Sequence record: NC_073063.1
DNA: 43,945 nucleotides
Direction: 5' to 3' (one strand)
Origin: Escherichia phage vB_EcoS_PNS1
The notes beneath the pieces were generated by a model. It was not told the origin of the DNA, did not search any database, and worked only from the letters and a program-made list of their open reading frames with translations. Position 1 is the stretch's first letter; each line of letters opens with the position of its first letter. Position numbers and translations under genes: made by a program. Of this stretch, positions 9,756 through 43,945 are shown one piece after another.

Positions 9756-9998
9756 TTAATAATCAATGACGCAGTTTGAAGGCGAACCAATCCTTCGGTG
9801 TTCGTGGCTAATCTCCTGGCACCACTGACCCGTATAAGGTAGCTTTTCGGTATCGTAAACCAAAGACCCGTCTTCATGTCGCTCAATAGGCTGAGGTATT
9901 ACACCCGAATTTGGAACGCCTGTGTTTACGCCATTGCCACATGCTGTCATCAGAAGGCACGCCGCGGGTATTATCAGATTTTTGATTAAAGTTTTCAT
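9756..9998 (-). CDS. small lipoprotein, candidate Cor/Llp-like superinfection exclusion protein
   Basis: Internal ATG at 9998 with GGAG RBS gives 80 aa starting MKTLIKNLIIPAACLLMTAC (signal peptide plus lipobox-like Cys); sits between J and tail fiber genes. Confidence 0.55.
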   Translation of the reverse strand: MKTLIKNLIIPAACLLMTACGNGVNTGVPNSGVIPQPIERHEDGSLVYDTEKLPYTGQWCQEISHEHRRIGSPSNCVIDY

Positions 9999-12778: not shown

Positions 12779-12800
12779 TGCAACCAACCTATTGGTTGCA
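12779..12800. promoter_or_regulatory. palindromic operator-like site TGCAACCAA-N4-TTGGTTGCA
   Basis: Inverted repeat with 9-bp arms, upstream of the minus-strand gene starting at 12726. Confidence 0.4.
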
Positions 12801-13259
12801 AGTATATTTTGCAACGTTTATTGCGTAAATTTTCGGGACCAGATCGCCGCACGCCAGACGAATTGCCGCGATGTTCTTCTCGCAATCTTCAATGATGACC
12901 AGTTCCGACACGTCAGCATAGCAGACCATTTTGAACACGGCGCACGCTTTAAACTCTGGCGGCGGGGTGTCGTCCAGCATGTGGCGCATAAACAACCGCC
13001 CTGTCGGGAATACTTCCAGTTGCTCGGCGGTGGTGTCCCAACATTCTAGCTGCCGGTTTGTCAGATACGCGATCTCGAAGCCTTGCTCTTTGTACATGCG
13101 CAACAGCGGCAGCATATCCATGTTCAGGTCTTCGCGGACGTGCGCCTTGTGCCACTTCGCCCAAAAGGTGGATTTAGTTTTTATCCCCGGCACCAGGTCG
13201 GCGCGCGCATCGCTTGATCCATTAATAACGCCATCCAGGTCACAAATCAGTAATTTCAT
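12789..13259 (-). CDS. HAD-superfamily phosphatase / 5-prime nucleotidase-like
   Basis: N-terminal ICDLDGVI matches HAD motif I (DxDG); GAGGA RBS; translationally coupled to upstream gene. Confidence 0.7.
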   Translation of the reverse strand: MKLLICDLDGVINGSSDARADLVPGIKTKSTFWAKWHKAHVREDLNMDMLPLLRMYKEQGFEIAYLTNRQLECWDTTAEQLEVFPTGRLFMRHMLDDTPPPEFKACAVFKMVCYADVSELVIIEDCEKNIAAIRLACGDLVPKIYAINVAKYTCNQ

Positions 13260-13480
13260 TTCAATTCCTCAATCAAATTTGCACGAACAATACGGGCGGA
13301 AGACGTGTAACACACTAGATGCCAACGGGCGGTCATTACGAGCCAGCCGGTAAGATCCATCCCAAGCAATTGCTCGGGGCGGATAACGCGACGTACTTTA
13401 TTCTCCCTCAGGTTGATTTGGTAACGTTTAACAATTTCGTCCACGACGCGCAGACTGCGGTCAACGATTAAGATATTCAT
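13256..13480 (-). CDS. hypothetical protein
   Basis: Small ORF coupled (ATGA overlap) to the HAD gene; start taken at first ATG. Confidence 0.4.
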   Translation of the reverse strand: MNILIVDRSLRVVDEIVKRYQINLRENKVRRVIRPEQLLGMDLTGWLVMTARWHLVCYTSSARIVRANLIEELK

Positions 13481-13946
13481 GTAGCTCACTCTCGCTCATT
13501 ATTTCAATTTGTGCGCTGCCGATTGGTGGCGCTTCGTCAAAGATTATCAATTGCTGGCACTTGTTATTGCTCGGCCCGACTTCACCGGTGACCGCATGGA
13601 TGAATCGTACACGCCAGTCCAGAAGAATTATCAGGTTTGCAGTCTTCCGGGCCAACTTCGCCCACTTCGTCGACGTGTCCTGATTCAGTAGCATGACAGT
13701 CCGGCGTCCGTGCGCTGCACACTCGACCCACGGCAGCGGATCGGAATACGGCGGATTGCACCACTTCCACCCTTTCAACTCTGACCAGTCCACTTCAAGC
13801 GCGCTGTGATCTGCCGTGAAATAACGCGGTAGCAGATGGTTGGCGTCGCTTGCCGCCATGTCATAACGGAATCGGTACTTCCGGCGCAGCGGTTTAAATA
13901 AAGCTGGCGGCGTGCGCCAGCTATCTTTTTGCTCACTCTTCTGCAT
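13461..13946 (-). CDS. dam: DNA N6-adenine methyltransferase (phage Dam family)
   Basis: 161 aa with WRTPP...CNPPYSD (NPPY catalytic motif), typical of small phage Dam methylases. Confidence 0.85.
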   Translation of the reverse strand: MQKSEQKDSWRTPPALFKPLRRKYRFRYDMAASDANHLLPRYFTADHSALEVDWSELKGWKWCNPPYSDPLPWVECAAHGRRTVMLLNQDTSTKWAKLARKTANLIILLDWRVRFIHAVTGEVGPSNNKCQQLIIFDEAPPIGSAQIEIMSESELHEYLNR

Positions 13947-14397
13947 GACCTGGATCTATCGCGTATAAAGGGACTTTATTGCCGGTTTTCATAACGCGTT
14001 GGACGCGCTTCGACTCCTCGGCGCTCATTGGGCGCATATCAGTGCTGTAACCACCGTTTGATGTATGCCGCCACGCCATAAGCACCAGGTCTTTCCGGTC
14101 AATCTTAGACTGGCGGCCCTTCGGACGGACGTACTCCTCGGCCAGTTTGCAATGCTCGCGCAGACCTTCGGCAGTGATGCGGTTTAGCGCGACGGTGGTT
14201 GTGTACCCGGTGCGCTGCATAATACCCATCAACTCATACAGCAGTTCGAAGCGCTCCTCTAACTCCTTGCGCATCTTTTCCTCGCCTTCATAGCTCGCCA
14301 TGTAGGTATCCGCCAGCGCGTTCGCCCGTTCGACCTGTTCGCGGGCTTCGAGGCATTGCGCGGCCCAGTAATTTTTCTCTTCTTGTAAAATTTTCAT
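13933..14397 (-). CDS. hypothetical protein
   Basis: 154 aa, GGAGA RBS; hairpin plus T-run lies in its 5-prime leader (14412-14437). Confidence 0.5.
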   Translation of the reverse strand: MKILQEEKNYWAAQCLEAREQVERANALADTYMASYEGEEKMRKELEERFELLYELMGIMQRTGYTTTVALNRITAEGLREHCKLAEEYVRPKGRQSKIDRKDLVLMAWRHTSNGGYSTDMRPMSAEESKRVQRVMKTGNKVPLYAIDPGHAEE

Positions 14398-20855: not shown

Positions 20856-21632
20856 TTAACGGCGGCGACGTTTACGTGGTGCTTCGTCTTCGTCCTCATC
20901 TTCGTCATCGCGTGGCTTACGACGTTTGCGAGGTTTTTCATCTTCCTCATCGTCGTCGTCATCGCGGCGCTTGGATTTTTTGGACTTGCGCGGTTTGTCG
21001 TCTTCGTCATCGTCATCACGACGTTTTGACTTTTTGGACTTGCGCGGGCTTTCGTCTTCGTCATCGTTGTCCAGGTCTTCGTCGGAACATGAAGACCCGC
21101 CACCTCCGAAGGCTTCGCCGTCTTCACGGAATCGCAGACCCAGCAAGCCAGCCCCGAGTCCCTTGCCGTTGGTATTGTTCCACGCCCAAATATCCAGGGA
21201 CACATTGCAATAACAACCGGAGTAGATCTCCTGGCCTTCGATCTCGTCGCCTTCTACGGTCAGACCTTGTTCCGTCTGCTTCTCGCCGAGTGACGTTTGA
21301 ATGATCGGCTGTTTGAACGATTTGGCGTTGATGTACAACATGCCTTCAAATTCTTCGGTTACTTCGTCGCGCTCGTCACCGTCGCGAACTGCGCATTCCT
21401 TAGAATCTTGGGCGTAGTGGCGGTCCATCCACTTATCGGCATTCTTCTCGGATTTCAGCTTGTCGGTGAGCACTGCGCGCGCTGCCGCTTCCACTTTGTC
21501 CACCTGCGGATCTTCTTTATCCAGAAGAATCACTGCACGGTATGCCGGTTTTTGTCCATCCTGTTTAGGGGTATCGCGCTCCCAAATTTTAAGGAAACAT
21601 ACGCGCACATTTTTCAGGTTGACTTTAGCCAT
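20856..21632 (-). CDS. putative ssDNA-binding protein (DUF2815-like) with repetitive charged C-terminal tail
   Basis: 258 aa from ATG 21632 (GAGGA RBS); N-terminus MAKVNLKNVRV...; C-terminal tandem repeats PRKSKKSKRRDDDD encoded by ~54-bp DNA repeats around 20975-21075. Confidence 0.6.
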   Translation of the reverse strand: MAKVNLKNVRVCFLKIWERDTPKQDGQKPAYRAVILLDKEDPQVDKVEAAARAVLTDKLKSEKNADKWMDRHYAQDSKECAVRDGDERDEVTEEFEGMLYINAKSFKQPIIQTSLGEKQTEQGLTVEGDEIEGQEIYSGCYCNVSLDIWAWNNTNGKGLGAGLLGLRFREDGEAFGGGGSSCSDEDLDNDDEDESPRKSKKSKRRDDDDEDDKPRKSKKSKRRDDDDDEEDEKPRKRRKPRDDEDEDEDEAPRKRRRR

Positions 21633-21722
21633 TTTCCAATTCCTCATTTTCACATGTATCGGGGTTATTGGAAGCCACCCCGTTCGGCTTGGTTGCTAAT
21701 CTACTTGGTTGCGCCTAAGCGG

Positions 21723-25098: not shown

Positions 25099-27363
25099 AT
25101 GAGCTTAATTAAATTCGCTGTAACACGACCCGCTAAAAAAGGCGAAAAAGCCAGGGCGGAAAACTTCCAGATGACCACCGATGAATTTTTCGAATTTATC
25201 AATGACGCGAAAGAAATCTCCTCGGTGCATATCAACAAGACGGAAGATAAAGCCGAGTATGCGCGCCGCAAGCGTAAGGCCGATGGCATCGTGGCGTATA
25301 CCAGTGACGGCTTACGCCGCAAGACCAGTGCGGTGGACCGCTCGATCCTGTTCTTCGATATTGACCGCACCGACACCCGCACCTTACGCCGCTGCCGTAA
25401 GGCTTTCATCGACGCGGGGCTGGAGCACGTATTCCACACCACTACGGGCGACCGCCACCCGCTGAAGGGCGGAACGCGTTGCGCCCGTTTCCTGGTGCTC
25501 ACTGACAAGCCTGTCCCGGCGGAAGACCTGGGCCGTGTCCAGTATGCGCTATTACACCAACTGGGTCTGTCAGATGTGGACTTCGACGATTGCACGAAAG
25601 ACACAAACCGCCTGATGTACCTGCCGCACCAGCAATCGGTTATTAAGTGCCACTATGGCAAACGTGCCAGTGTCCGTCGTCTGCTTCGCCTGGCGGATAA
25701 GCTGGGGGTGGAGAAGGAGGAAGTCCGCCGCGAACTGACCAAGGGCGACGACGCCGTGGCAGACGGCATTCTGGACTGGTGCTTCCAGGCGGGATTCGAG
25801 GAGTTATCTTCCGGGCGGGGCTATGAAGTGCCGTGCCCTAACGAACACCTGCACAGCGGCGAAGGGTCCACCGCCATAATGGTCAAGGATGGCGAGATCC
25901 GTTTCAAGTGTATGCACACCGGCAACGAGTGCTGCTCGGAGCTGAACAGACACCAGCACCTGGCGCTCCGTCTTATCGGTATCCCGGACCACCTGAACGT
26001 CGAGCCGCACAACATGTCACGTAAGCAAATCGCCGCCATCCTGCCAGGTCTGGACGACGAGGAAGTCGAATCATTATATGATCATATTGTTGATGCGGTA
26101 GGCGACGGCGAAGAATACGGCGTGTGCACCGATTCGGATCTGGATAACGAGCCGGTCGCACTGTTCAGCAAGCACGACCCGATCATCGAAGGTCTGATTA
26201 ACTTTAAATCGACCTGGTATCTCGCCGGTGAGTCGAACATTGGTAAGTCTTTCTATGTGCTGGGGCAAATGGCTTCAGTATCTGCCGGTATTCCGTTTGG
26301 TGGGGCGAAGGTCGTCCAGTGCCACAACTTCTATTTCGATGCGGAAGGTGGTGAAGCCTCTAACCAGCGTAAAGAAGCATTGCAGATTAAATACGAGCAC
26401 GACCTGGATAAGCTGCACATTATCGATCTGCAATCACGCGGCTGGGATATCACCAGCAAATCAGGCTTGCGCGAAGTTATCAGCTTTATCAACCGCACCG
26501 CTAACGGCGAACCGGTTGGCCTGGTGGCGTTCGACTCACTCAACCAGACTGTTGCGTTGCGGTCCGCGGATGCTAAACCGTTCGACGAGAACAACGCCAG
26601 CGATATGGGTGAAGTGGTCAAAGCGCTGAAGGCCATCGCGGAAAATACAGGTGGCAGTGCGGGCGTCATCCACCACCCGGCGAAGGGTGCAAACGGCAGC
26701 AGAACCCCACGCGGGTCCGGCGCGCTGCATGGTGCTGTCGATTCTGCGTTCTTCCTGGAACAGCCGGACGACAACCAGCCAGGCCAATTGAACCTGTATC
26801 ACGAAAAGGCACGTAACGGCATCAAGCAAGCGCCGCGAGGCTTCGTCCTGCTCAAGTGCAAGGTGAAGGTGGATCTCCGCAAGTCAGAAGCGTTCGCGTC
26901 GCACCAGTCCACCAGCACCGGGCCAGACTTCGGTGACGTGGTTGCCGGTTGGGACGTCAAGCCAATTGCATCCACGCCACGCGACGAGACTCTGTATCTC
27001 GTACCGGTCGCCCTGGCACCGTTCGCCATCGAACAGGCAAAGTCCGCTGGCAAGGCCGCAGTTAAGGAAGAGAACGCCGCAGGACCGCGCAATGAAAAAG
27101 AGAAAGTGCTCTATGCGGCGCTGGAAAAACTGATGGAAGATAACCCGGACAATACCGGATTCAGCAAATCGGCAATTGTCCGCCAGGCTGGACTGGCAAA
27201 AGGTGGAACATCGACGAAGGCAATCGACGATATGGTCGAGCGCGGCGTACTCGGTTTTTATACAGACCCACACACCGGAGCCATCTATGGGTCGTCGAAT
27301 ATCGTCATCAAAACGAATATACCCATCACGCTTTCGGCGACCGATGACGACCTGAAAGATTAA
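25099..27363 (+). CDS. primase/helicase-type replication initiator (RecA-fold ATPase domain)
   Basis: 754 aa; Walker A GESNIGKS, Walker B-like LVAFDSLNQ; central Cys/His cluster; iterons begin at its stop codon. Confidence 0.85.
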   Translation: MSLIKFAVTRPAKKGEKARAENFQMTTDEFFEFINDAKEISSVHINKTEDKAEYARRKRKADGIVAYTSDGLRRKTSAVDRSILFFDIDRTDTRTLRRCRKAFIDAGLEHVFHTTTGDRHPLKGGTRCARFLVLTDKPVPAEDLGRVQYALLHQLGLSDVDFDDCTKDTNRLMYLPHQQSVIKCHYGKRASVRRLLRLADKLGVEKEEVRRELTKGDDAVADGILDWCFQAGFEELSSGRGYEVPCPNEHLHSGEGSTAIMVKDGEIRFKCMHTGNECCSELNRHQHLALRLIGIPDHLNVEPHNMSRKQIAAILPGLDDEEVESLYDHIVDAVGDGEEYGVCTDSDLDNEPVALFSKHDPIIEGLINFKSTWYLAGESNIGKSFYVLGQMASVSAGIPFGGAKVVQCHNFYFDAEGGEASNQRKEALQIKYEHDLDKLHIIDLQSRGWDITSKSGLREVISFINRTANGEPVGLVAFDSLNQTVALRSADAKPFDENNASDMGEVVKALKAIAENTGGSAGVIHHPAKGANGSRTPRGSGALHGAVDSAFFLEQPDDNQPGQLNLYHEKARNGIKQAPRGFVLLKCKVKVDLRKSEAFASHQSTSTGPDFGDVVAGWDVKPIASTPRDETLYLVPVALAPFAIEQAKSAGKAAVKEENAAGPRNEKEKVLYAALEKLMEDNPDNTGFSKSAIVRQAGLAKGGTSTKAIDDMVERGVLGFYTDPHTGAIYGSSNIVIKTNIPITLSATDDDLKD

Positions 27364-27500
27364 TTTGTGCGCGCATTGGTTGCCGATATGGGAATTCCCA
27401 TATCGCTAAAAGATTAATTTGTGCGCGCATTGGTTGCCGATATGGGAATTCCCATATCGCTAAAAGATTAAATTCTGCGCGCATTGGTTGCCATTTAGGG
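27361..27500. repeat. tandem 54-bp iterons each with a 20-bp perfect palindrome; candidate replication origin
   Basis: Units at 27361-27414 and 27415-27468 are identical, third partial; palindrome GATATGGGAATTCCCATATC at 27385-27404 and 27439-27458; each unit carries ATTGGTTGCC. Confidence 0.8.
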
Positions 27501-27544
27501 TGTTTTTATCCGGTCGTATTGGTTGCCGTGTAGTGTAAATATAA

Positions 27545-27740
27545 TGAATAGTTATGCAGTTTTATTGCATAAAGTAAGCGGGACAGAAAGCGGGACAAAC
27601 AAGGGGCGGGACAAAGCGGGACAGCACCCCTGTCCCGCCCCGGATGACGCGGCCTGGCGAGGAGCGGGACAGGCGGGACAAACCCCAGTCTTTCAGACTA
27701 GACGGGGGGTCTGTCACCCCCCTCGTCTGAGACTGCATAA
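27545..27740. repeat. GCGGGACA repeat array with palindrome GGGACAGCACCCCTGTCCC and terminal hairpin; copy B
   Basis: About 190 bp, about 85 percent identical by eye to the 3-prime part of 113-432; palindrome at 27618-27636. Confidence 0.8.
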
Positions 27741-27894
27741 AATCCGGTATTGCAAAATACACGGCAGCATGTTGCGGATCGCGGTCGTCGCTGAACTAGG
27801 CAACCAATGCGAGATGCAGAACGGGGTGTGAAAAATGCAGTTTGCAGATTCAGCAGATAGCGATCAACTTTTTCATACGCGTGATTAATATTGG

Positions 27895-27923
27895 TTGCAT
27901 CCGCCCTGACACACTGCTATATT
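27895..27923 (+). promoter_or_regulatory. candidate promoter for the small-gene block
   Basis: TTGCAT, 17-bp spacer, TATATT; overlaps two ATTGGTTGCA motifs. Confidence 0.4.
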
Positions 27924-27950
27924 GGTTGCACACCAACAGGAGGGCGGAAC

Positions 27951-29087: not shown

Positions 29088-29138
29088 CCTGGCGGCACTG
29101 GTGCTGTTGGCGTCGGTTATTAGTCTGGTTAAATACCT

Positions 29139-29438
29139 ATGGGGCAGATTATGATTCATGATGTGATTTATTGGTTTGGTATGGCTAGCATGTTATGCCT
29201 GGTTACGGGAGTGCTGGGCGCAATATGGGTATTCCTGGTATGGCCCGCGGTAGAAGCCGCCAGCATTACCCGCATGACGTTCCAGATATACAAGCGCCGT
29301 GGAATCACGGAGCACCCGACCAGGTTGCGCATGTGGTGGCTGTGGTATCGGGATATGATAGGCGGTCGAACATTCGAAGCCGTCCGTTCATCCGGGTGGG
29401 AGTGGAAAGGCGTCGGCAAGTGGTCCGTTTTCGATTAA
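29139..29438 (+). CDS. membrane protein
   Basis: 99 aa with hydrophobic N-terminal segment and Trp-rich region. Confidence 0.45.
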   Translation: MGQIMIHDVIYWFGMASMLCLVTGVLGAIWVFLVWPAVEAASITRMTFQIYKRRGITEHPTRLRMWWLWYRDMIGGRTFEAVRSSGWEWKGVGKWSVFD

Positions 29439-29455
29439 TTATGCAAGCGTGATAT

Positions 29456-29490
29456 AGTCCCAGTGAGCTAAAACTTACTGGGACTTTTTT
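29456..29490 (+). terminator. hairpin plus T6 immediately upstream of holin-like gene (attenuator)
   Basis: Stem agtcccagt/actgggact then tttttt, ending one base before ATG 29491. Confidence 0.5.
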
Positions 29491-29781
29491 ATGGATAAGC
29501 TAAACGAGTGGCTATTCGCCCTGGCATGTCTGGCGGGTGGCTTCGTAGGCGCACGCATTCATGGCGATGCTACGAAAGGGCCGCTAAACTTCGTTTTGTA
29601 TGTTGTAGTTGGCTTCCTGTGTGCCATATTTGGCGCACCGGCTATCGCTGAGTGGGCTGGTTTGTCGGGTGAGCGCACTGTCGCCGGTTTGGGCTTCGTA
29701 ACCGCGATCTTCTGGATGCCAATCGCCGACCGGATCAGGGAGACTATTGCGTCGTTCCGACTTCCGGGGGGTGCAAAATGA
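29491..29781 (+). CDS. holin-like membrane protein
   Basis: 96 aa with predicted transmembrane segments; directly upstream of endolysin. Confidence 0.5.
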   Translation: MDKLNEWLFALACLAGGFVGARIHGDATKGPLNFVLYVVVGFLCAIFGAPAIAEWAGLSGERTVAGLGFVTAIFWMPIADRIRETIASFRLPGGAK

Positions 29782-30023
29782 TTATCTCCGTCCTGTTGTT
29801 TGTTATCATCGGGGCTTCGTCCCTGTTTAACGTGTATGCGCCGTCCGTCCAGGATGGCATTTTCGGTCGGGTGCTGTATCTGTTAACGGCAATGGTCTGT
29901 ATTATCGGATTGTTGCAAACAGGAGACGTATCTGATACCACCTGGACCGCGTTAATATGGCTGTTTGCATTGCGCACACTGCGTAATGCTGTTTTGAATG
30001 GGGTAAAACATGCGATTCAGTGA
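29778..30023 (+). CDS. membrane protein (holin/antiholin candidate)
   Basis: 81 aa, two hydrophobic helices; overlaps neighbours on both sides. Confidence 0.45.
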   Translation: MIISVLLFVIIGASSLFNVYAPSVQDGIFGRVLYLLTAMVCIIGLLQTGDVSDTTWTALIWLFALRTLRNAVLNGVKHAIQ

Positions 30024-30501
30024 TAACGGTCTCCGATTTACGGCAGCATGGGAGGCGTTCAGCCCGGTGCCGTATTTCGCGACCAAGAAAGAGCAGGCCC
30101 GCGGCCTGTACACCTGGGGTTATGGGCACACCGGCACTAATCCGCCTCGAAGCATTACCCGTGCGGAAGCGCTGGAACTGCTCAAGCGCGATGTGGCGTA
30201 TGCCGAGGACTGGGTGAACAAATACGCACATCCGAGCATTAACCAGGCGCAATTCGACGCGCTGGTGGACCTGGTAATCAACGCCGGTCCTGGTCCGATC
30301 GTACCGGATGACGTCGCTAACGATTTCGATGATGCGGTGCGACTGGGCGACTGGGCGAAGGTCCGTGCTACGCTGCCGCAGTTCCGCAAGCAAGGCGGGG
30401 AAGTGCTTAAAGGTTTGGTCCGCCGAGCAATCGGCAGACAGGCGTTGTTTGATGGTAAGCAGTGGGACGTTGCCGAGCGAATCGGGCGTAACGCCGCATA
30501 A
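30010..30501 (+). CDS. endolysin, phage lysozyme (GH24-like)
   Basis: 163 aa; E...D...T catalytic spacing with TWGYGHTG motif. Confidence 0.85.
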   Translation: MRFSDNGLRFTAAWEAFSPVPYFATKKEQARGLYTWGYGHTGTNPPRSITRAEALELLKRDVAYAEDWVNKYAHPSINQAQFDALVDLVINAGPGPIVPDDVANDFDDAVRLGDWAKVRATLPQFRKQGGEVLKGLVRRAIGRQALFDGKQWDVAERIGRNAA

Positions 30502-35663: not shown

Positions 35664-36750
35664 TCAATATATGGCGGATCGAATGATTCGCCGACACATC
35701 TTCACCCAGCGCCTGAGTAATGACCAGGCGCGGCGGGTGCTGGCTATGTGGGAGAAGTTCCGGCCCACGTTACTGGGTAAGCTGACCGAGTTACTTGATG
35801 GCAAAAAGTCCATGAACAACAAGGCACTTACCACTCTGTTAACGCAACTCGACAAGACCGTTAAAACAGAACTGCGCACCGAGTTTAAGGCGCTGGCTGA
35901 AAGCCTTCAGGAGTTTGCCGACACCGAGGCCGATTATCTCGCCGACACATTAACGGCAGCGATCCAGCCGGTGGTCGCCGTACCTGCGGTCGAGGTGGTG
36001 GGGGTAGTAACAGGCGCGCAGATCGCAGCGACGGCTATGAAAAACCCGTTCCAGGGTAACACCATGATGCAGTGGCCCGATTCACTTTCCGAGTGGACCA
36101 GGACGCAGATCGGCAATCAGGTGCGCGCCGGATTCATCCAGGGCAAGCCGACGATGGAAATTATCGCGGATGTGAGGCGCGCGCTAGGCGGTCGTAGTGC
36201 GCAAGCAATCTCAAGCGTTGTTAAGTCCGCGGTCAACCACTATGCGGCGACCGCCCGCGAATTAATGGTAAAAGCTAATGACGATATTCTCGAAGGTCGC
36301 CAATGGTTGGCTACATTGGACACACACACGTCACCCATGTGCCAGCTACGCGATCGCCTGTTTTATCCGGTTGATGTTACTTCCGACACCAAAGGCAAGC
36401 GCGGCGGGAAAGTGGTGGCGGGATCACAATACGGCGCTGGTCCGGGCAAGCTGCATTATTGCTGCCGTTCGACGGAGACGTGGAAAGTCAAAGGTATGGA
36501 AGATTGGCCCAGTGGTAAGCGTCCGGCACTGAAGGATGACGCAGGCAGATTGCTGAGTGAGCAGGTAGACGCGCAGACTGATTTCTTCTCATGGGTGCAG
36601 CGCCAGCCGCGCCATATCCTGGAGGAGTTATATGGAGTGCAACGCGCCGACCAGATTATGCGCGGCGTGAAAGTGCCGAAGATGTTTACCGATTCTGGCG
36701 AACTGATGACTATTGCGCAGCTTAAAAACCGGGGGTTATGGCGTGATTAA
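35647..36750 (+). CDS. head morphogenesis / minor head protein (SPP1 gp7, Mu F-like)
   Basis: 367 aa directly after portal, start overlapping portal end. Confidence 0.75.
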   Translation: MAKTINQYMADRMIRRHIFTQRLSNDQARRVLAMWEKFRPTLLGKLTELLDGKKSMNNKALTTLLTQLDKTVKTELRTEFKALAESLQEFADTEADYLADTLTAAIQPVVAVPAVEVVGVVTGAQIAATAMKNPFQGNTMMQWPDSLSEWTRTQIGNQVRAGFIQGKPTMEIIADVRRALGGRSAQAISSVVKSAVNHYAATARELMVKANDDILEGRQWLATLDTHTSPMCQLRDRLFYPVDVTSDTKGKRGGKVVAGSQYGAGPGKLHYCCRSTETWKVKGMEDWPSGKRPALKDDAGRLLSEQVDAQTDFFSWVQRQPRHILEELYGVQRADQIMRGVKVPKMFTDSGELMTIAQLKNRGLWRD

Positions 36751-37072
36751 ATATGCAGCAATCGGACTGGTTATCGGTCTGGTGGTAGGATTCTGGCTAG
36801 GTGACTCCTATCGTGCTGGCGTAGTGGCGGAGGCGGCGCAAGAAGCGCAAGCCGAAGCCCAACGGCAGCAAACTAAAGTTATTGAGCGCTCCGTGCAGGC
36901 CGAACAAGCCCGCGACGTAGAATACCGGACTATAACGAAAGAGGTTGTTAAATATGTTACGCGCCCTAACCGCCCTGATTGTAGTTTTGATGCTGAGCGC
37001 GTGCGGATCAAGCAACGTGCCGTTGATGCCGCTAACGGAGTCGGCACTGCGTCCGCCGTGCAAGTTCGATAG
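36743..37072 (+). CDS. i-spanin (Rz-like)
   Basis: N-terminal transmembrane helix (AAIGLVIGLVVGFWLG) then charged helical region (AQEAQAEAQRQQ...); start GTG 36743 or TTG 36713. Confidence 0.65.
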   Translation: MIKYAAIGLVIGLVVGFWLGDSYRAGVVAEAAQEAQAEAQRQQTKVIERSVQAEQARDVEYRTITKEVVKYVTRPNRPDCSFDAERVRIKQRAVDAANGVGTASAVQVR

Positions 37073-37184
37073 CCCGTCCGCAGACCCCGACGAGGATTTG
37101 ATGATTGACGTGAAAAATATGGAATGCGGGGCGAAGCTAAGGGCGCAGGTGCTGGAGTTGCAGCAAATAATTAAGGGGCCGTAA
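36954..37184 (+). CDS. o-spanin (Rz1-like lipoprotein), overlapped with i-spanin gene
   Basis: MLRALTALIVVLMLSAC signal peptide with lipobox LSAC, Pro-rich mature part; starts inside the i-spanin gene in another frame. Confidence 0.7.
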   Translation: MLRALTALIVVLMLSACGSSNVPLMPLTESALRPPCKFDSPSADPDEDLMIDVKNMECGAKLRAQVLELQQIIKGP

Positions 37185-37196
37185 TGGCCCCTTTTC
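37173..37196. terminator. bidirectional hairpin terminator between spanin genes and convergent minus-strand gene
   Basis: Stem aaggggcc/ggcccctt with loop gtaat, T-run downstream. Confidence 0.6.
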
Positions 37197-37197
37197 G

Positions 37198-37962
37198 TTA
37201 GCGCGGAATGCCGCAAATCTCGTTAAGTGTTTTCACGTCCAGCGCCACTGCCGTGGATTTTGGCTTGTCCGGGTACGGGATGAATTGCTCGACTTCAGGC
37301 CATGCCTTAATAAGCTTCTTGTCAGTATTGTGCATGTCCAGTACACCGGTAACGGTGAGTTTGAACGCATCATACTTCGCGCGCAACTCGCGACGTGCCT
37401 TGTCGTTGCGGTCCAGTCGCTTACAGAAGTCATGGTCCGCCGGGTAGTCTACGCGACCGCGTGGGAGATATATCGGCAGCGCTTTCCCTTCCTCGTCCAC
37501 TTCGCACACTGACGCGAGCATAACTGTCTCGAACCCCGGAACGATATCGCCGAGATCAGGCGCGAGCTTATTCATATATTTCTCTTCCCAGTATCCGCGA
37601 TGCACGCGGAATTGGCGACCGTCACCGCTCAAGGACAAGGTGCGAACATTGCCGCCTGCGTTGATTTCAAAGGTGGCGTCGTAAACGCTGCCGATACCCT
37701 TCGGGCGGTCGGTGTTATAACTATACGTCGCCTTGTTGGTGTATACGCTGACGCCGTACATCTGCGACTGGTCATCGCGGATTGCCTTGATATGCTCGCG
37801 GAGCGCTGCGAACGTGCGAATGCCTTCCGGCATACAGTCAAGCGTGATTGCGTACGCCAGATCGCGTGAGTCCATCATGATTTGTTTGGCTTCGGTTGCG
37901 ATTTCGTGGTCGCGCAGGATGTTAGCCAGAATCTGATTTTTAATGTCTTTCGTCAGTCTCAT
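37198..37962 (-). CDS. hypothetical protein (opposite-strand island in head module)
   Basis: 254 aa, no motif recognised; flanked by hairpins. Confidence 0.55.
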   Translation of the reverse strand: MRLTKDIKNQILANILRDHEIATEAKQIMMDSRDLAYAITLDCMPEGIRTFAALREHIKAIRDDQSQMYGVSVYTNKATYSYNTDRPKGIGSVYDATFEINAGGNVRTLSLSGDGRQFRVHRGYWEEKYMNKLAPDLGDIVPGFETVMLASVCEVDEEGKALPIYLPRGRVDYPADHDFCKRLDRNDKARRELRAKYDAFKLTVTGVLDMHNTDKKLIKAWPEVEQFIPYPDKPKSTAVALDVKTLNEICGIPR

Positions 37963-38001
37963 TTTTATGTCCTCATTTTAGGGGCTTTCGCCCCGATTGG
38001 T

Positions 38002-38316
38002 TTAGTTGAATTTGATGTTGCCACCGGTGGAAGTTAAGCGGGCACATACTGCTTCAACGGCATCGACGCACATGAAATCGTTAAAGGCTTCGACCAGGGC
38101 GTTTATGAAAGATGCCGGAACCAGGCCGCAAGCCGGATTATCGAATGTTGCGGAGTTGATCGCCGCTTTTGCCGCTTCGGAAGCATTCATGCTCTGGCAC
38201 AGATTCAGCGCTTCCGCGTTACGCATTGCGTGAAAGGTAAAGGTATTCGCTACGGTAGCTTTATTGAAACGGGCCATTGCGGCGTCTACTGGAGTTGCTA
38301 CGGTCATGTTAGTCAT
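38002..38316 (-). CDS. hypothetical protein (opposite-strand island)
   Basis: 104 aa from ATG 38316 with AAGGA RBS; upstream region carries the TATATTGGTTGCACACCAACAG element. Confidence 0.45.
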   Translation of the reverse strand: MTNMTVATPVDAAMARFNKATVANTFTFHAMRNAEALNLCQSMNASEAAKAAINSATFDNPACGLVPASFINALVEAFNDFMCVDAVEAVCARLTSTGGNIKFN

Positions 38317-38388
38317 TTTGTTTTCCTTCATATCTCTGTTGGTGTGCAACCAATATAAAGCAACCAACATCCGCAACGCAAGCGAATT

Positions 38389-38416
38389 TTGCGATTATTT
38401 TTATCGCTGATAATAT
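38389..38416 (+). promoter_or_regulatory. candidate promoter for scaffold/capsid genes
   Basis: TTGCGA, 16-bp spacer, TAATAT. Confidence 0.3.
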
Positions 38417-38470
38417 TAAGGCGTGAAGTCAAGCGGGTGGCCCGCTTTGCCACAATCCCAGGGGGATAGC

Positions 38471-39172
38471 ATGAAACTTACTAAAGCAGAATATGACGCG
38501 TTGCCGGAAGGTATGAAGGCGCTTTTTGTTGCCGATGGTGACGGGTACAAATCAACGTTCATGACCGCCGAAGAAGTACAGGCGGAGATCAAGGGTCTGA
38601 AAGACAACAACGCGAAGCTGGTTAGCGAGAAGAAAGCAGAAGCCGAACGTCGCGCCGAAGCCGAGCGCCTTGCGAAAGAGAAAGAGGAAGCCGCCGCGCG
38701 CAAAAATGGCGACCTCGAAGCGATCGATAAGTCCTGGAAAGATAAGTTCGCAAAACATGAAGCGGACACGTCGGGGAAAATCGAAGCCTACCGCAAGCAG
38801 ATCCACGACTTAACCATCGGCAGCGCTGCCAAAGATCTGGCGTCGAAGCTGTTCGGTAAGAACGCGGGCATCATGCAACGTCACGTTATGGACCGCCTCA
38901 CTCTGGAGGACGGCGAAGACGGCAGCTTGAAAGTGCGTGTCTTGCAGGATGGCAAACCGTCCGCGCTGACTATGGAAGAGCTGGAAAAAGAGTTCCGTAA
39001 TAACGCCGATTTTGCATCCGTCCTGGCTGGCACGCCAGCAGGCGGCGCTCCTAGCAAACCGACGCAGGTTGTCGAAGATGTGAAGTCTAAAATTACGATG
39101 GGCCATAGCTTCGGTATCACCGATCTCACCAAACAGGCCGAGGATATCATCGCTAAAATGGGCTACGAGTAA
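38471..39172 (+). CDS. scaffolding protein
   Basis: 233 aa from ATG 38471 (GGGGGA RBS); Lys/Glu/Ala-rich coiled-coil; immediately upstream of major capsid gene. Confidence 0.65.
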   Translation: MKLTKAEYDALPEGMKALFVADGDGYKSTFMTAEEVQAEIKGLKDNNAKLVSEKKAEAERRAEAERLAKEKEEAAARKNGDLEAIDKSWKDKFAKHEADTSGKIEAYRKQIHDLTIGSAAKDLASKLFGKNAGIMQRHVMDRLTLEDGEDGSLKVRVLQDGKPSALTMEELEKEFRNNADFASVLAGTPAGGAPSKPTQVVEDVKSKITMGHSFGITDLTKQAEDIIAKMGYE

Positions 39173-43617: not shown

Positions 43618-43931
43618 TTGAGGCGGCGCGGCGATTTTATGGCCCGCCGCCACCCTCCGAAGATTTAGCCGCGAGTTTATGGGGTGCGACACCGGAAGAC
43701 GTGTGTCCACCCGTTGCGCTGTGGCCAGACAATGCGAAGGTAGTCGCAGTCTTCACCGATTGCTCCACGCAATGGCGTACCGGATTTGGCGGGGCATACG
43801 GCATAGACTACGGCGTACTGGAATGGTTATTTAAGATGCACGGCATCGAAAACGCGCAACGCGCATTTAAAGATATCAAGCTAATGGAACGCGTTGCGCT
43901 GGATGAAATGGCGCGGCAGAACCCCGCATAA
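43255..43931 (+). CDS. tail assembly chaperone G-T fusion (by -1 frameshift at 43608-43614)
   Basis: Frame 43611..43931 has no stop and joins ORF 43701..43931; conserved G/GT arrangement upstream of tape measure. Confidence 0.55.
43608..43614 (+). other. programmed -1 ribosomal frameshift site (slippery heptamer AAAAAAC)
   Basis: Heptamer 7 nt before the G stop codon; the -1 frame stays open from 43611 to the TAA at 43929-43931. Confidence 0.6.
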
Positions 43932-43945
43932 CGAAGCGGGACAGG

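Follow-up and report, generated by a model that had tools for sequence, protein, structure and literature searches.

A leftward nmad5 unit with a variable cassette slot in the head module of Escherichia phage vB_EcoS_PNS1

Here we describe two genes located on the minus strand inside the head module of Escherichia phage vB_EcoS_PNS1 (NC_073063.1; the whole stretch of 43,945 bp that was analyzed is termed the window): nmad5, encoding a protein of 254 amino acids, and orf104, encoding a protein of 104 amino acids. The finding is largely explained, in that nmad5 belongs to a known family with a published escape phenotype and orf104 is an uncharacterized mobile cassette. The interpretation we favor, with a probability of roughly 0.55, is that the genes lie in a leftward operon in which Nmad5 is a non-catalytic accessory of replication and recombination with non-late expression, and orf104 is an independent mobile cassette. 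In the order of transcription, the unit would consist of a promoter-like region with TTGGTTGC boxes and a 22-bp element, a cassette slot containing orf104 and a GNRA-tetraloop hairpin, nmad5, and a bidirectional terminator shared with Rz1. An earlier note on this DNA, made from its letters, had proposed two genes running against the flow of the head genes, bounding hairpins and an upstream 22-bp element shared with another site, and all three are borne out at the following positions.

37173-37193, both strands: bidirectional terminator hairpin with an 8-bp stem, common to Rz1 (plus) and nmad5 (minus), the Rz1 stop codon (37182-37184) being in the loop.
37198-37962, minus strand: nmad5, 254 amino acids plus stop (stop codon 37198-37200), matching Pfam Nmad5 (PF18757) and phrog_1965.
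37970-37974, minus strand: Shine-Dalgarno sequence GAGGA of nmad5, within the conserved GAGGACAyAAAAATG that forms the downstream edge of the cassette slot.
37981-37994, minus strand: GNRA-tetraloop hairpin GGGGC-GAAA-GCCCC (-11.4 kcal/mol), which travels with the cassette.
38002-38316, minus strand: orf104, 104 amino acids from an ATG preceded by AAGGA, matching phrog_24635 and filling the variable slot.
38324-38328, minus strand: Shine-Dalgarno sequence AAGGA of orf104, with the ATG at 38316 following after 7 nt.
38336-38357, minus strand: 22-bp element CTGTTGGTGTGCAACCAATATA (minus-strand reading TATATTGGTTGCACACCAACAG), combining a -10-like TATATT (38352-38357), one TTGGTTGC box and a TTGGT/ACCAA palindrome.
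38346-38353 and 38360-38367, minus strand: two TTGGTTGC boxes, one within the spacer and one closely following the -10-like hexamer, bracketing TATATT.
38376-38381, minus strand: -35-like TTGCGT, 18 nt upstream of TATATT (38352-38357), assigned by eye.

The pair sits between the Rz/Rz1 spanin genes and the scaffold gene. Its plus-strand neighbors are the genes for the terminase large subunit, portal, head morphogenesis protein and Rz with embedded Rz1 on one side, and for scaffold and major capsid protein on the other. Judged by their matches, both minus-strand open reading frames (ORFs) are real genes and not chance ORFs, because the Nmad5 protein has Pfam and PHROG matches, the orf104 product has a PHROG match, and the ratio of nonsynonymous to synonymous substitution rates (dN/dS) of nmad5 is 0.11 in comparison with 11 relatives. 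The nmad5 product matched PF18757, the nucleotide modification associated domain 5 (Nmad5), with an E value of 6.7e-62 and 209.6 bits (cutoff 27), its residues 1-253 aligning with positions 1-206 of the 206-position profile, and it also fell into phrog_1965 by profile match. This supersedes, for the 254-amino acid protein, the earlier statement that neither protein has a recognizable motif.

As a denominator for the genus Dhillonvirus, we used the 157 records in a phage collection with a capsid protein of at least 80% identity. Nmad5 is present at 80% identity or above in 144 records and at 60-80% in 4 more, that is, in about 148 of 157, and the Dhillonvirus proteins encoded at the same position are 85-98.8% identical to the window protein. 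Even locus L029 (Nmad5 67% and capsid 90% identity) and locus L031 (Nmad5 38% and capsid 81% identity) retain the opposite-strand position between Rz and scaffold. Across the 11 relatives, dN was 0.062 for nmad5 as against 0.012-0.021 for the scaffold, capsid, portal and head morphogenesis genes. Thus, nmad5 is constrained by purifying selection, yet its protein sequence changes several times (3-5-fold) faster than those of the flanking genes. Its GC content of 0.540 (0.66 at third codon positions, GC3) is native to a genome with a GC content of 0.544, and no moron-like deviant base composition was found for nmad5.

Lambdoid morons are gene units with a promoter and terminator of their own, set within late operons (Hendrix and colleagues), and a moron layout had been proposed for this pair. 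Part of the comparison stands: a separate leftward unit with a promoter-like region and a terminator interrupts the late structural operon from the opposite strand, it is an insertion into the head module by comparison with Edwardsiella phage eiAU, and orf104 is sporadic (59 of 157 records) with deviant GC3. The terminator of the unit is clear, and its promoter is a candidate, TTGCGT-18-TATATT. The other part does not stand, given that nmad5 is core, holds its position and is native in composition. Moreover, vB_EcoS_PNS1 is virulent, hence there is no prophage expression, and the sporadic element is a promoterless cassette within the 5' leader of a resident gene. We conclude that nmad5 is no sporadic moron but a dispensable, non-virion gene of the genus core, because purifying selection acts on it and about 148 of the 157 records contain it; its product also shares 88% identity with the Nmad5 of phage SM_A8, for which an escape mutation has been published.

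Given this location between the head morphogenesis and scaffold genes, and the near-universal presence of nmad5 there in the genus, both products might instead be proteins of head assembly or minor virion components whose genes happen to lie on the opposite strand, a possibility that the earlier note had named against its own moron proposal. We consider this very improbable. Neither product looks virion-like, and Nmad5 is neither required for particle formation nor similar to structural folds: the nmad5 deletion is viable, a profile search of Protein Data Bank (PDB) sequences gave no more than a non-significant capsid match (E 0.31), and fold searches returned no relative among structural proteins. 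In addition, eiAU and many other phages keep the homolog in early or replication regions, and about 60% of the genus lacks orf104.

The family name reflects an association with base-modification genes, according to the Pfam description and secondary sources, and Nmad5 has been termed a DNA-modification enzyme in the study of Tmn escape discussed below (PMC11846954). Under that view, Nmad5 would be a DNA-modification enzyme or cofactor and Tmn would sense an Nmad5-dependent modification of Dhillonvirus DNA. In its favor stands Yuavirus PAC5, in which the gene order is aGPT-Pplase2, pyridoxal phosphate (PLP) enzyme, radical S-adenosylmethionine (radical-SAM) enzyme, kinase, aGPT-Pplase1, Nmad5 and thymidylate-synthase-like hydroxymethylase, all upstream of the gene for the DNA polymerase (PMC9476957), so that Nmad5 lies between aGPT-Pplase1 and the hydroxymethylase. 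The Nmad5 proteins of Yuavirus and M6-like Pseudomonas phages belong to the same Pfam family, share 38-41% identity with the window protein over the C-terminal ~85 residues and are likewise encoded upstream of a family A DNA polymerase. However, theirs are flanked by aGPT-Pplase1/2, kinase, radical-SAM enzyme, PLP enzyme and hydroxymethylase, none of which is present in vB_EcoS_PNS1, and the Dhillonvirus protein is longer, with an insert at approximately residues 111-143.

When 12 proteins of the Yuavirus hypermodification and nucleotide-metabolism cassette were compared by phmmer with all six-frame ORFs of the window, only Nmad5 had a homolog. Pfam scans of 20 early-region ORFs identified an AAA_25 primase/helicase, DUF2800 PD-(D/E)XK nuclease, Enc34-type single-stranded DNA-binding protein (SSB, 20856-21653), family A polymerase, VRR-NUC, SNF2 helicase, Dam methyltransferase, DUF6378, HAD-like phosphatase and metallophosphatase; among these 20, there was no hypermodification enzyme, and Dam was the only DNA-modification gene. 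The Nmad5 family alignment contained no conserved cluster of catalytic-looking residues, its invariant positions being G104, W221 and P222. As indirect evidence on virion DNA, Dhillonviruses of the BASEL collection are reported to be sensitive to type I and type II restriction, unlike the deazaguanine-modified Queuovirinae (PMC8594841). We thus consider the label of DNA-modification enzyme unsupported for Dhillonvirus Nmad5, because partner enzymes are missing from this near-complete genome, there is no catalytic cluster and Dhillonviruses are restriction-sensitive. Although a point mutation in Nmad5 does alter the outcome of Tmn defense, deletion of the gene leaves Tmn sensitivity unchanged, which is hard to square with a sensed modification, and most homologs reside in phages and prophages without such cassettes, lambdoid ones included. 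Overall, a role in DNA modification is unlikely.

The genomic neighborhoods of the family point instead to replication and recombination. A profile-guided scan of viral contigs yielded 69 Nmad5 loci, 57 of them outside the Dhillonvirus group, and neighbors were called with the replication proteins of the window and with Pfam-confirmed RecT, YqaJ, DUF3799 nuclease, AAA_24, DUF669 and primase-polymerase. A replication or recombination gene was present within 5 kb of nmad5 in 40 of the 57 loci and within 2 kb in 24, in almost all cases on the same strand. At 14 loci nmad5 comes immediately after the gene of an Enc34-type SSB; 12 of them have it between SSB and PolA, and the other two (L037 and L039) upstream of the module. 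All 14 share the DUF2800-SSB-PolA-VRR_NUC-SNF2 module that is also carried by vB_EcoS_PNS1. In other lineages nmad5 follows an OB-fold SSB gene beside RecT/YqaJ, precedes an Exo-RecT-SSB set or an AAA_24-DUF669 pair, or comes after a primase-polymerase gene or, in an early region of lambdoid type, after the replication genes. Prophage-like contigs (for example L073-L080 and L086) carry the same family and the same module (PolA E ~1e-150, SNF2 ~1e-155), but there nmad5 is on the same strand directly between SSB and PolA, whereas in Dhillonvirus it is on the opposite strand within the head module. These neighborhoods provide moderate support for a replication role.

A comparison with eiAU (capsid 62% identity) suggests how the gene came to lie where it does. 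The head morphogenesis-scaffold-capsid block of eiAU is uninterrupted, so that the nmad5 unit is an insertion at the evolutionary depth separating eiAU and Dhillonvirus. The eiAU homolog of nmad5 is positioned downstream of the primase/helicase gene and before the holins, and the equivalent operon of the window starts with the second copy of the 22-bp element. It is thus possible that nmad5 and its promoter were relocated together in an ancestor of the Dhillonvirus group.

Site-specific genetic data on Nmad5 come from the defense system Tmn. Spontaneous Tmn-escape mutants of SM_A8 and SM_S22 carry Nmad5 K216E, which is K296E by the longer annotation of SM_S22 (Yamashita et al. 2025, Commun Biol, PMC11846954). 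In the same study, reversion of K216E restored Tmn sensitivity, engineered K216E conferred resistance, deletion of nmad5 gave viable phage that did not escape Tmn, and cloning of nmad5 failed with apparent toxicity. SM_A8 Nmad5 is an orthologue of the window protein, with 88.2% identity over 254 amino acids, the same opposite-strand position between Rz1 and scaffold, and K216 retained within an identical local stretch, NTDKKLIKAWPE. We found no substantive difference at the sequence level between the Nmad5 proteins of SM_A8 or SM_S22 and that of the window. The 334-amino acid annotation of SM_S22 Nmad5 extends upstream into the scaffold gene, and the cassette slot is empty in this phage; we read the extra 80 residues as an annotation artefact.

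In an alignment of 40 family members, residues conserved at 90% or above besides the three invariant ones are R2, L3, P167, T213, L217, E223, P229, L246, N247, G251 and P253, and the window protein contains the family motifs M-R-L-T at the start of the N-terminal helix, T-x-x-K-L-x-x-x-W-P-E...P near the C terminus and L-N-x-x-x-G-x-P. K216 is part of the T-x-x-K-L-x-x-x-W-P-E motif. Column 216 holds K or R in 27 of the 40 members and is never acidic, and the adjoining L217 is conserved in 37 of 40. K216E would thus place an unprecedented charge on what is predicted to be the most conserved surface of Nmad5, which fits an altered interaction and not a loss of function, because the column is never acidic and adjoins the near-invariant L217, in accord with the published deletion result. 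Tmn sensitivity may accordingly depend on the surface around the conserved K216-L-x-x-x-W-P-E motif. The K216 link to Tmn escape is published data, and exclusion, anti-defense and host modulation, which the earlier note had raised as functions, are otherwise only candidates.

Structure prediction for both proteins had been proposed in the same note. The AlphaFold2 model of Nmad5, built from the 40-sequence alignment, has a predicted local distance difference test score (pLDDT) of 77.9 and a predicted template modeling score (pTM) of 0.74, and it comprises in order an N-terminal helical hairpin, a small beta meander, the insert at ~111-143 with low confidence, a long helix at 178-209 and short helices bearing the W-P-E motif. 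A profile search of PDB sequences returned nothing significant for Nmad5, and fold searches with the model found no structural relative. For orf104, the model reached a pLDDT of 48 from 10 homologs, too poor for a fold search.

RIIB has been reported as a Tmn trigger in T2 (PMC13001434). A relationship of Nmad5 to T4 RIIB was ruled out by a hhalign probability of 0.2%, and neither Nmad5 nor the orf104 product corresponds to other published immune triggers of Dhillonviruses, Ksap1 (Avs2) and portal (RAZR) being different genes. Positions 13933-14397 (minus) of the window encode a 154-amino acid protein with 81% identity to CDS0035 of SM_S22. CDS0035 lies between the Dam and HNH endonuclease genes and is missing from SM_A8, and by this position and absence we identify it as the published anti-Tmn gene (ORF35). 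With this homolog, vB_EcoS_PNS1 carries both the Nmad5 K216 determinant of Tmn sensitivity and an anti-Tmn homolog.

The Tmn data also lend some weight to an explanation in which both genes form a counter-defense or host-takeover module, with Nmad5 acting on a host process or immune component and the slot holding interchangeable anti-defense genes. Consistent with this, the unit is on the opposite strand with a candidate promoter and a terminator of its own, Nmad5 is nonessential, apparently toxic on cloning and converted by one substitution to gain-of-function Tmn escape, its protein sequence evolves at the 3-5-fold higher rate noted above, and the slot is a hot spot of small mobile genes. 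Such hot spots are a pattern typical of anti-defense loci. However, neither protein matched a known defense or anti-defense family among the PADLOC-DB profiles (no hit with E ≤ 1); neither wild-type Nmad5 nor orf104 protects from Tmn, given that SM_A8 has both and is sensitive; the family is placed in replication and recombination operons and not in accessory regions; and one of the alternative cassettes encodes a beta-clamp-like replication protein. We regard counter-defense as a minority possibility, well ahead of DNA modification.

A consensus scan for sigma-70 promoters across 36500-39000 called none, and the promoter proposed here for the orf104-nmad5 unit derives from a manual comparison of conserved hexamers. 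The 22-bp element is conserved in all 12 related loci examined, and the hexamers equivalent to those of the window are TTGCAA-17-TATATT in SECphi18 and TTGCAT-17-TATATT at the other copy in the window. This second copy, at 27918-27939 on the plus strand, is an exact reverse complement of the first and lies upstream of the operon following the primase gene, which starts at 27940. The window holds 21 copies of the 8-mer TTGGTTGC, 11-fold more than the 1.9 expected, and the sites are almost always intergenic and often paired 14-17 bp apart, for example at 12780/12792, 14453/14470, 17412, 21689/21705, 27376-27929 and 38346/38360. At several of them, TTGGTTGCAT provides a -35-like TTGCAT 16-17 nt before a -10-like hexamer. 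There are 19 copies of TTGGTTGC in eiAU and 22 in SM_A8. TTGGTTGC is probably a phage regulator or promoter box, and we infer that the orf104-nmad5 promoter is of the sigma-70 type and controlled by a phage DNA-binding protein. Because a copy of the 22-bp element also heads the operon following the primase gene, where eiAU keeps nmad5, Nmad5 would share the promoter type of that operon and be expressed with the non-late genes.

Immediately after the primase/helicase gene, positions 27352-27513 hold three tandem 54-bp repeats, the second and third 98% and 72% identical to the first. All three carry one TTGGTTGC box each, to which the first two add a GGGAATTCCC palindrome. These repeats look like iterons at a replication origin.

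At its other end, the unit is closed by the hairpin at 37173-37193, which folds with -15.6 kcal/mol on the plus strand (z score -2.6) and -15.9 kcal/mol on the minus strand (z score -3.2); 0 of 200 shuffled minus-strand sequences folded as well. The hairpin at 37981-37994 is followed by TAAAATGAGG and has no U-tract on the minus strand, and it is therefore not a canonical terminator.

The upstream part of the unit is a slot with variable content. In SECphi18, the conserved promoter and 22-bp element run directly into ACGAGGACACAAAAATG, the ribosome-binding site and start codon of nmad5. In the alignment, the window has a block of ~350 bp inserted at the exact SECphi18 junction, consisting of the AAGGA leader, orf104 and the GNRA hairpin. 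Among the 12 related loci, the slot occurs in five states.

Empty: SECphi18, SM_S22 and three others.
orf104 plus hairpin: vB_EcoS_PNS1, among the 59 records with orf104.
ORF of 135 amino acids plus hairpin: for example type phage HK578; 7 records in the database.
Beta-clamp-like ORF of 170 amino acids plus a remnant of the orf104 3' end plus hairpin: for example EP23; up to 16 records.
ORF of 53 amino acids, no hairpin: 4 records in the database.

By alignment, at least four different cassettes, orf104 among them, can occupy the stretch from the conserved promoter to the ribosome-binding site of nmad5, and in some relatives this slot is empty. The GNRA hairpin follows the orf104, 135-amino acid and clamp-like cassettes and is absent from the empty slot and with the 53-amino acid cassette, and the orf104 leader, GAGATATGAAGGAAAACAA(A/G)ATG, also precedes the 135-amino acid cassette in loci L006 and L009. 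A common leader and 3' hairpin may provide the homology that lets cassettes replace one another. In L004 (IMGVR_UViG_2597490041_000001, identical at the protein level to Shigella phage EP23), the clamp-like cassette still has, 3' of its own stop codon, the final ~20 nt of orf104 (…GGCATCAAATTCAACTAA) followed by the hairpin; this remnant is the footprint of one cassette replacing another. Homologs of the cassette genes are found in Pantoea, Serratia, Erwinia and Salmonella phages and in ~150-kb myophages, not next to nmad5. The nmad5 leader as a hot spot for cassettes appears to be new.

Several properties set orf104 apart from its resident neighbor. Its product belongs to phrog_24635 (E 1e-67 by PHROG profile match), has no match in Pfam, PADLOC or PDB, is acidic (isoelectric point, pI, 5.1) and is predicted to be all-alpha. 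An alternative longer reading from a TTG start extends to 38376. At 90% identity or above, orf104 is present in 59 of the 157 Dhillonvirus records, and both SECphi18 and SM_S22 lack it. Its GC content is 0.508 with a GC3 of 0.55, as against a GC3 of 0.63-0.69 for its neighbors. Among unrelated phages, homologs were found in Pantoea phages and in ~150-kb myophages, and in none of these does the gene adjoin nmad5. A functional link between orf104 and Nmad5 was ruled out by these homologs elsewhere and by the many Dhillonviruses that carry nmad5 without orf104. Nor is orf104 an anti-Tmn factor, because SM_A8 is Tmn-sensitive despite an orf104 99% identical to that of the window. In its distribution and composition, orf104 behaves like a sporadic, moron-like accessory cassette; it would be an independent, horizontally mobile early accessory gene using the nmad5 promoter.

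For Nmad5, the corresponding conclusion is that it would act here outside any base-hypermodification pathway, as a non-catalytic accessory of the phage replication and recombination apparatus. A number of observations weigh against this interpretation or qualify it. The promoter is read from sequence, the sigma-70 consensus scan having found no site. The neighborhood counts have no background control and random phage genes often lie within 5 kb of replication genes, the 14 SSB-adjacent loci come largely from one related group, and nmad5 is far from the replication module in Dhillonvirus. Nmad5 is near-neutral (pI ~7) and has no detectable structural relative, and nothing in this points to binding of DNA or protein. 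Deletion keeps Tmn sensitivity while K216E abolishes it, which a simple sensed-protein role fails to explain (PMC11846954). Finally, the fast evolution of nmad5 and its toxicity would also fit a host-directed or counter-defense role.

More speculatively, and as a tentative extension that we hold less probable than the operon interpretation itself, Nmad5 may be misnamed: a widespread accessory subunit, orphan in fold, of phage replication and recombination modules, typically adjacent to SSB, to whose K-L-x-x-x-W-P-E surface Tmn is tuned, and whose gene was transplanted with its early promoter into the head module, where the leader became a hot spot for small mobile early genes such as orf104, a mini beta-clamp and others. 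What also appears to be new is the evidence from the gene content of this genome and from the neighborhoods of the family as a whole, which speaks against calling Nmad5 a modification factor and favors an accessory role in replication or recombination. Nmad5 is one of few phage proteins genetically tied to the Tmn membrane defense, and the literature calls it a DNA-modification enzyme on the family name alone. With partner enzymes missing, homologs in replication and recombination operons and the escape residue in the most conserved motif, the mechanistic question shifts to replication-linked sensing. The nmad5 slot, in turn, offers a compact natural set of interchangeable early accessory genes in otherwise near-isogenic phages on which phage engineering is already practiced.

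The window is a near-complete genome of the HK578/SSL-2009a group of Dhillonvirus, with vB_Eco_Lzu_P3 as the best match (96.8% identity), and the 1.8 kb around the locus is 94-97% identical to dozens of Escherichia Dhillonvirus phages. An exact repeat of 127 bp is present at both ends, 1-127 being identical to 43819-43945, so that the window represents one genome with a unit length of 43,818 bp plus an overlap. It is a terminal repeat or else arose in assembly, as the overlapping ends of a circularly permuted genome.

Next to the unit, the Rz1 lipoprotein gene (36945-37184) is embedded in Rz in the +1 frame. This spanin pair lies within the head module, distant from the holin and endolysin genes at ~29100-30500. 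On the minus strand at 13256-13477, between the genes for the Dam methyltransferase and the HAD-like phosphatase, an ORF of 74 amino acids (MNILIVDRSL...) resembles Ksap1, the published trigger of Klebsiella Avs2 in Dhillonviruses, by position and length only.

A second opposite-strand gene in a late module is located at 9756-9998 (minus), antisense in the tail module downstream of a gpJ-like gene, and encodes an 80-amino acid lipoprotein (MKTLIKNLIIPAACLLMTAC...). It is preceded by TTGGTTGCAT-16-TAATAC, and SM_A8 has the superinfection-exclusion gene cor there with the same upstream region. This site resembles the nmad5 unit in its TTGGTTGC-type promoter-like region and in its varying content, cor in SM_A8 and another lipoprotein here, but differs from it in that the product is an exported lipoprotein with a plausible role in exclusion, unrelated to Nmad5 or orf104.

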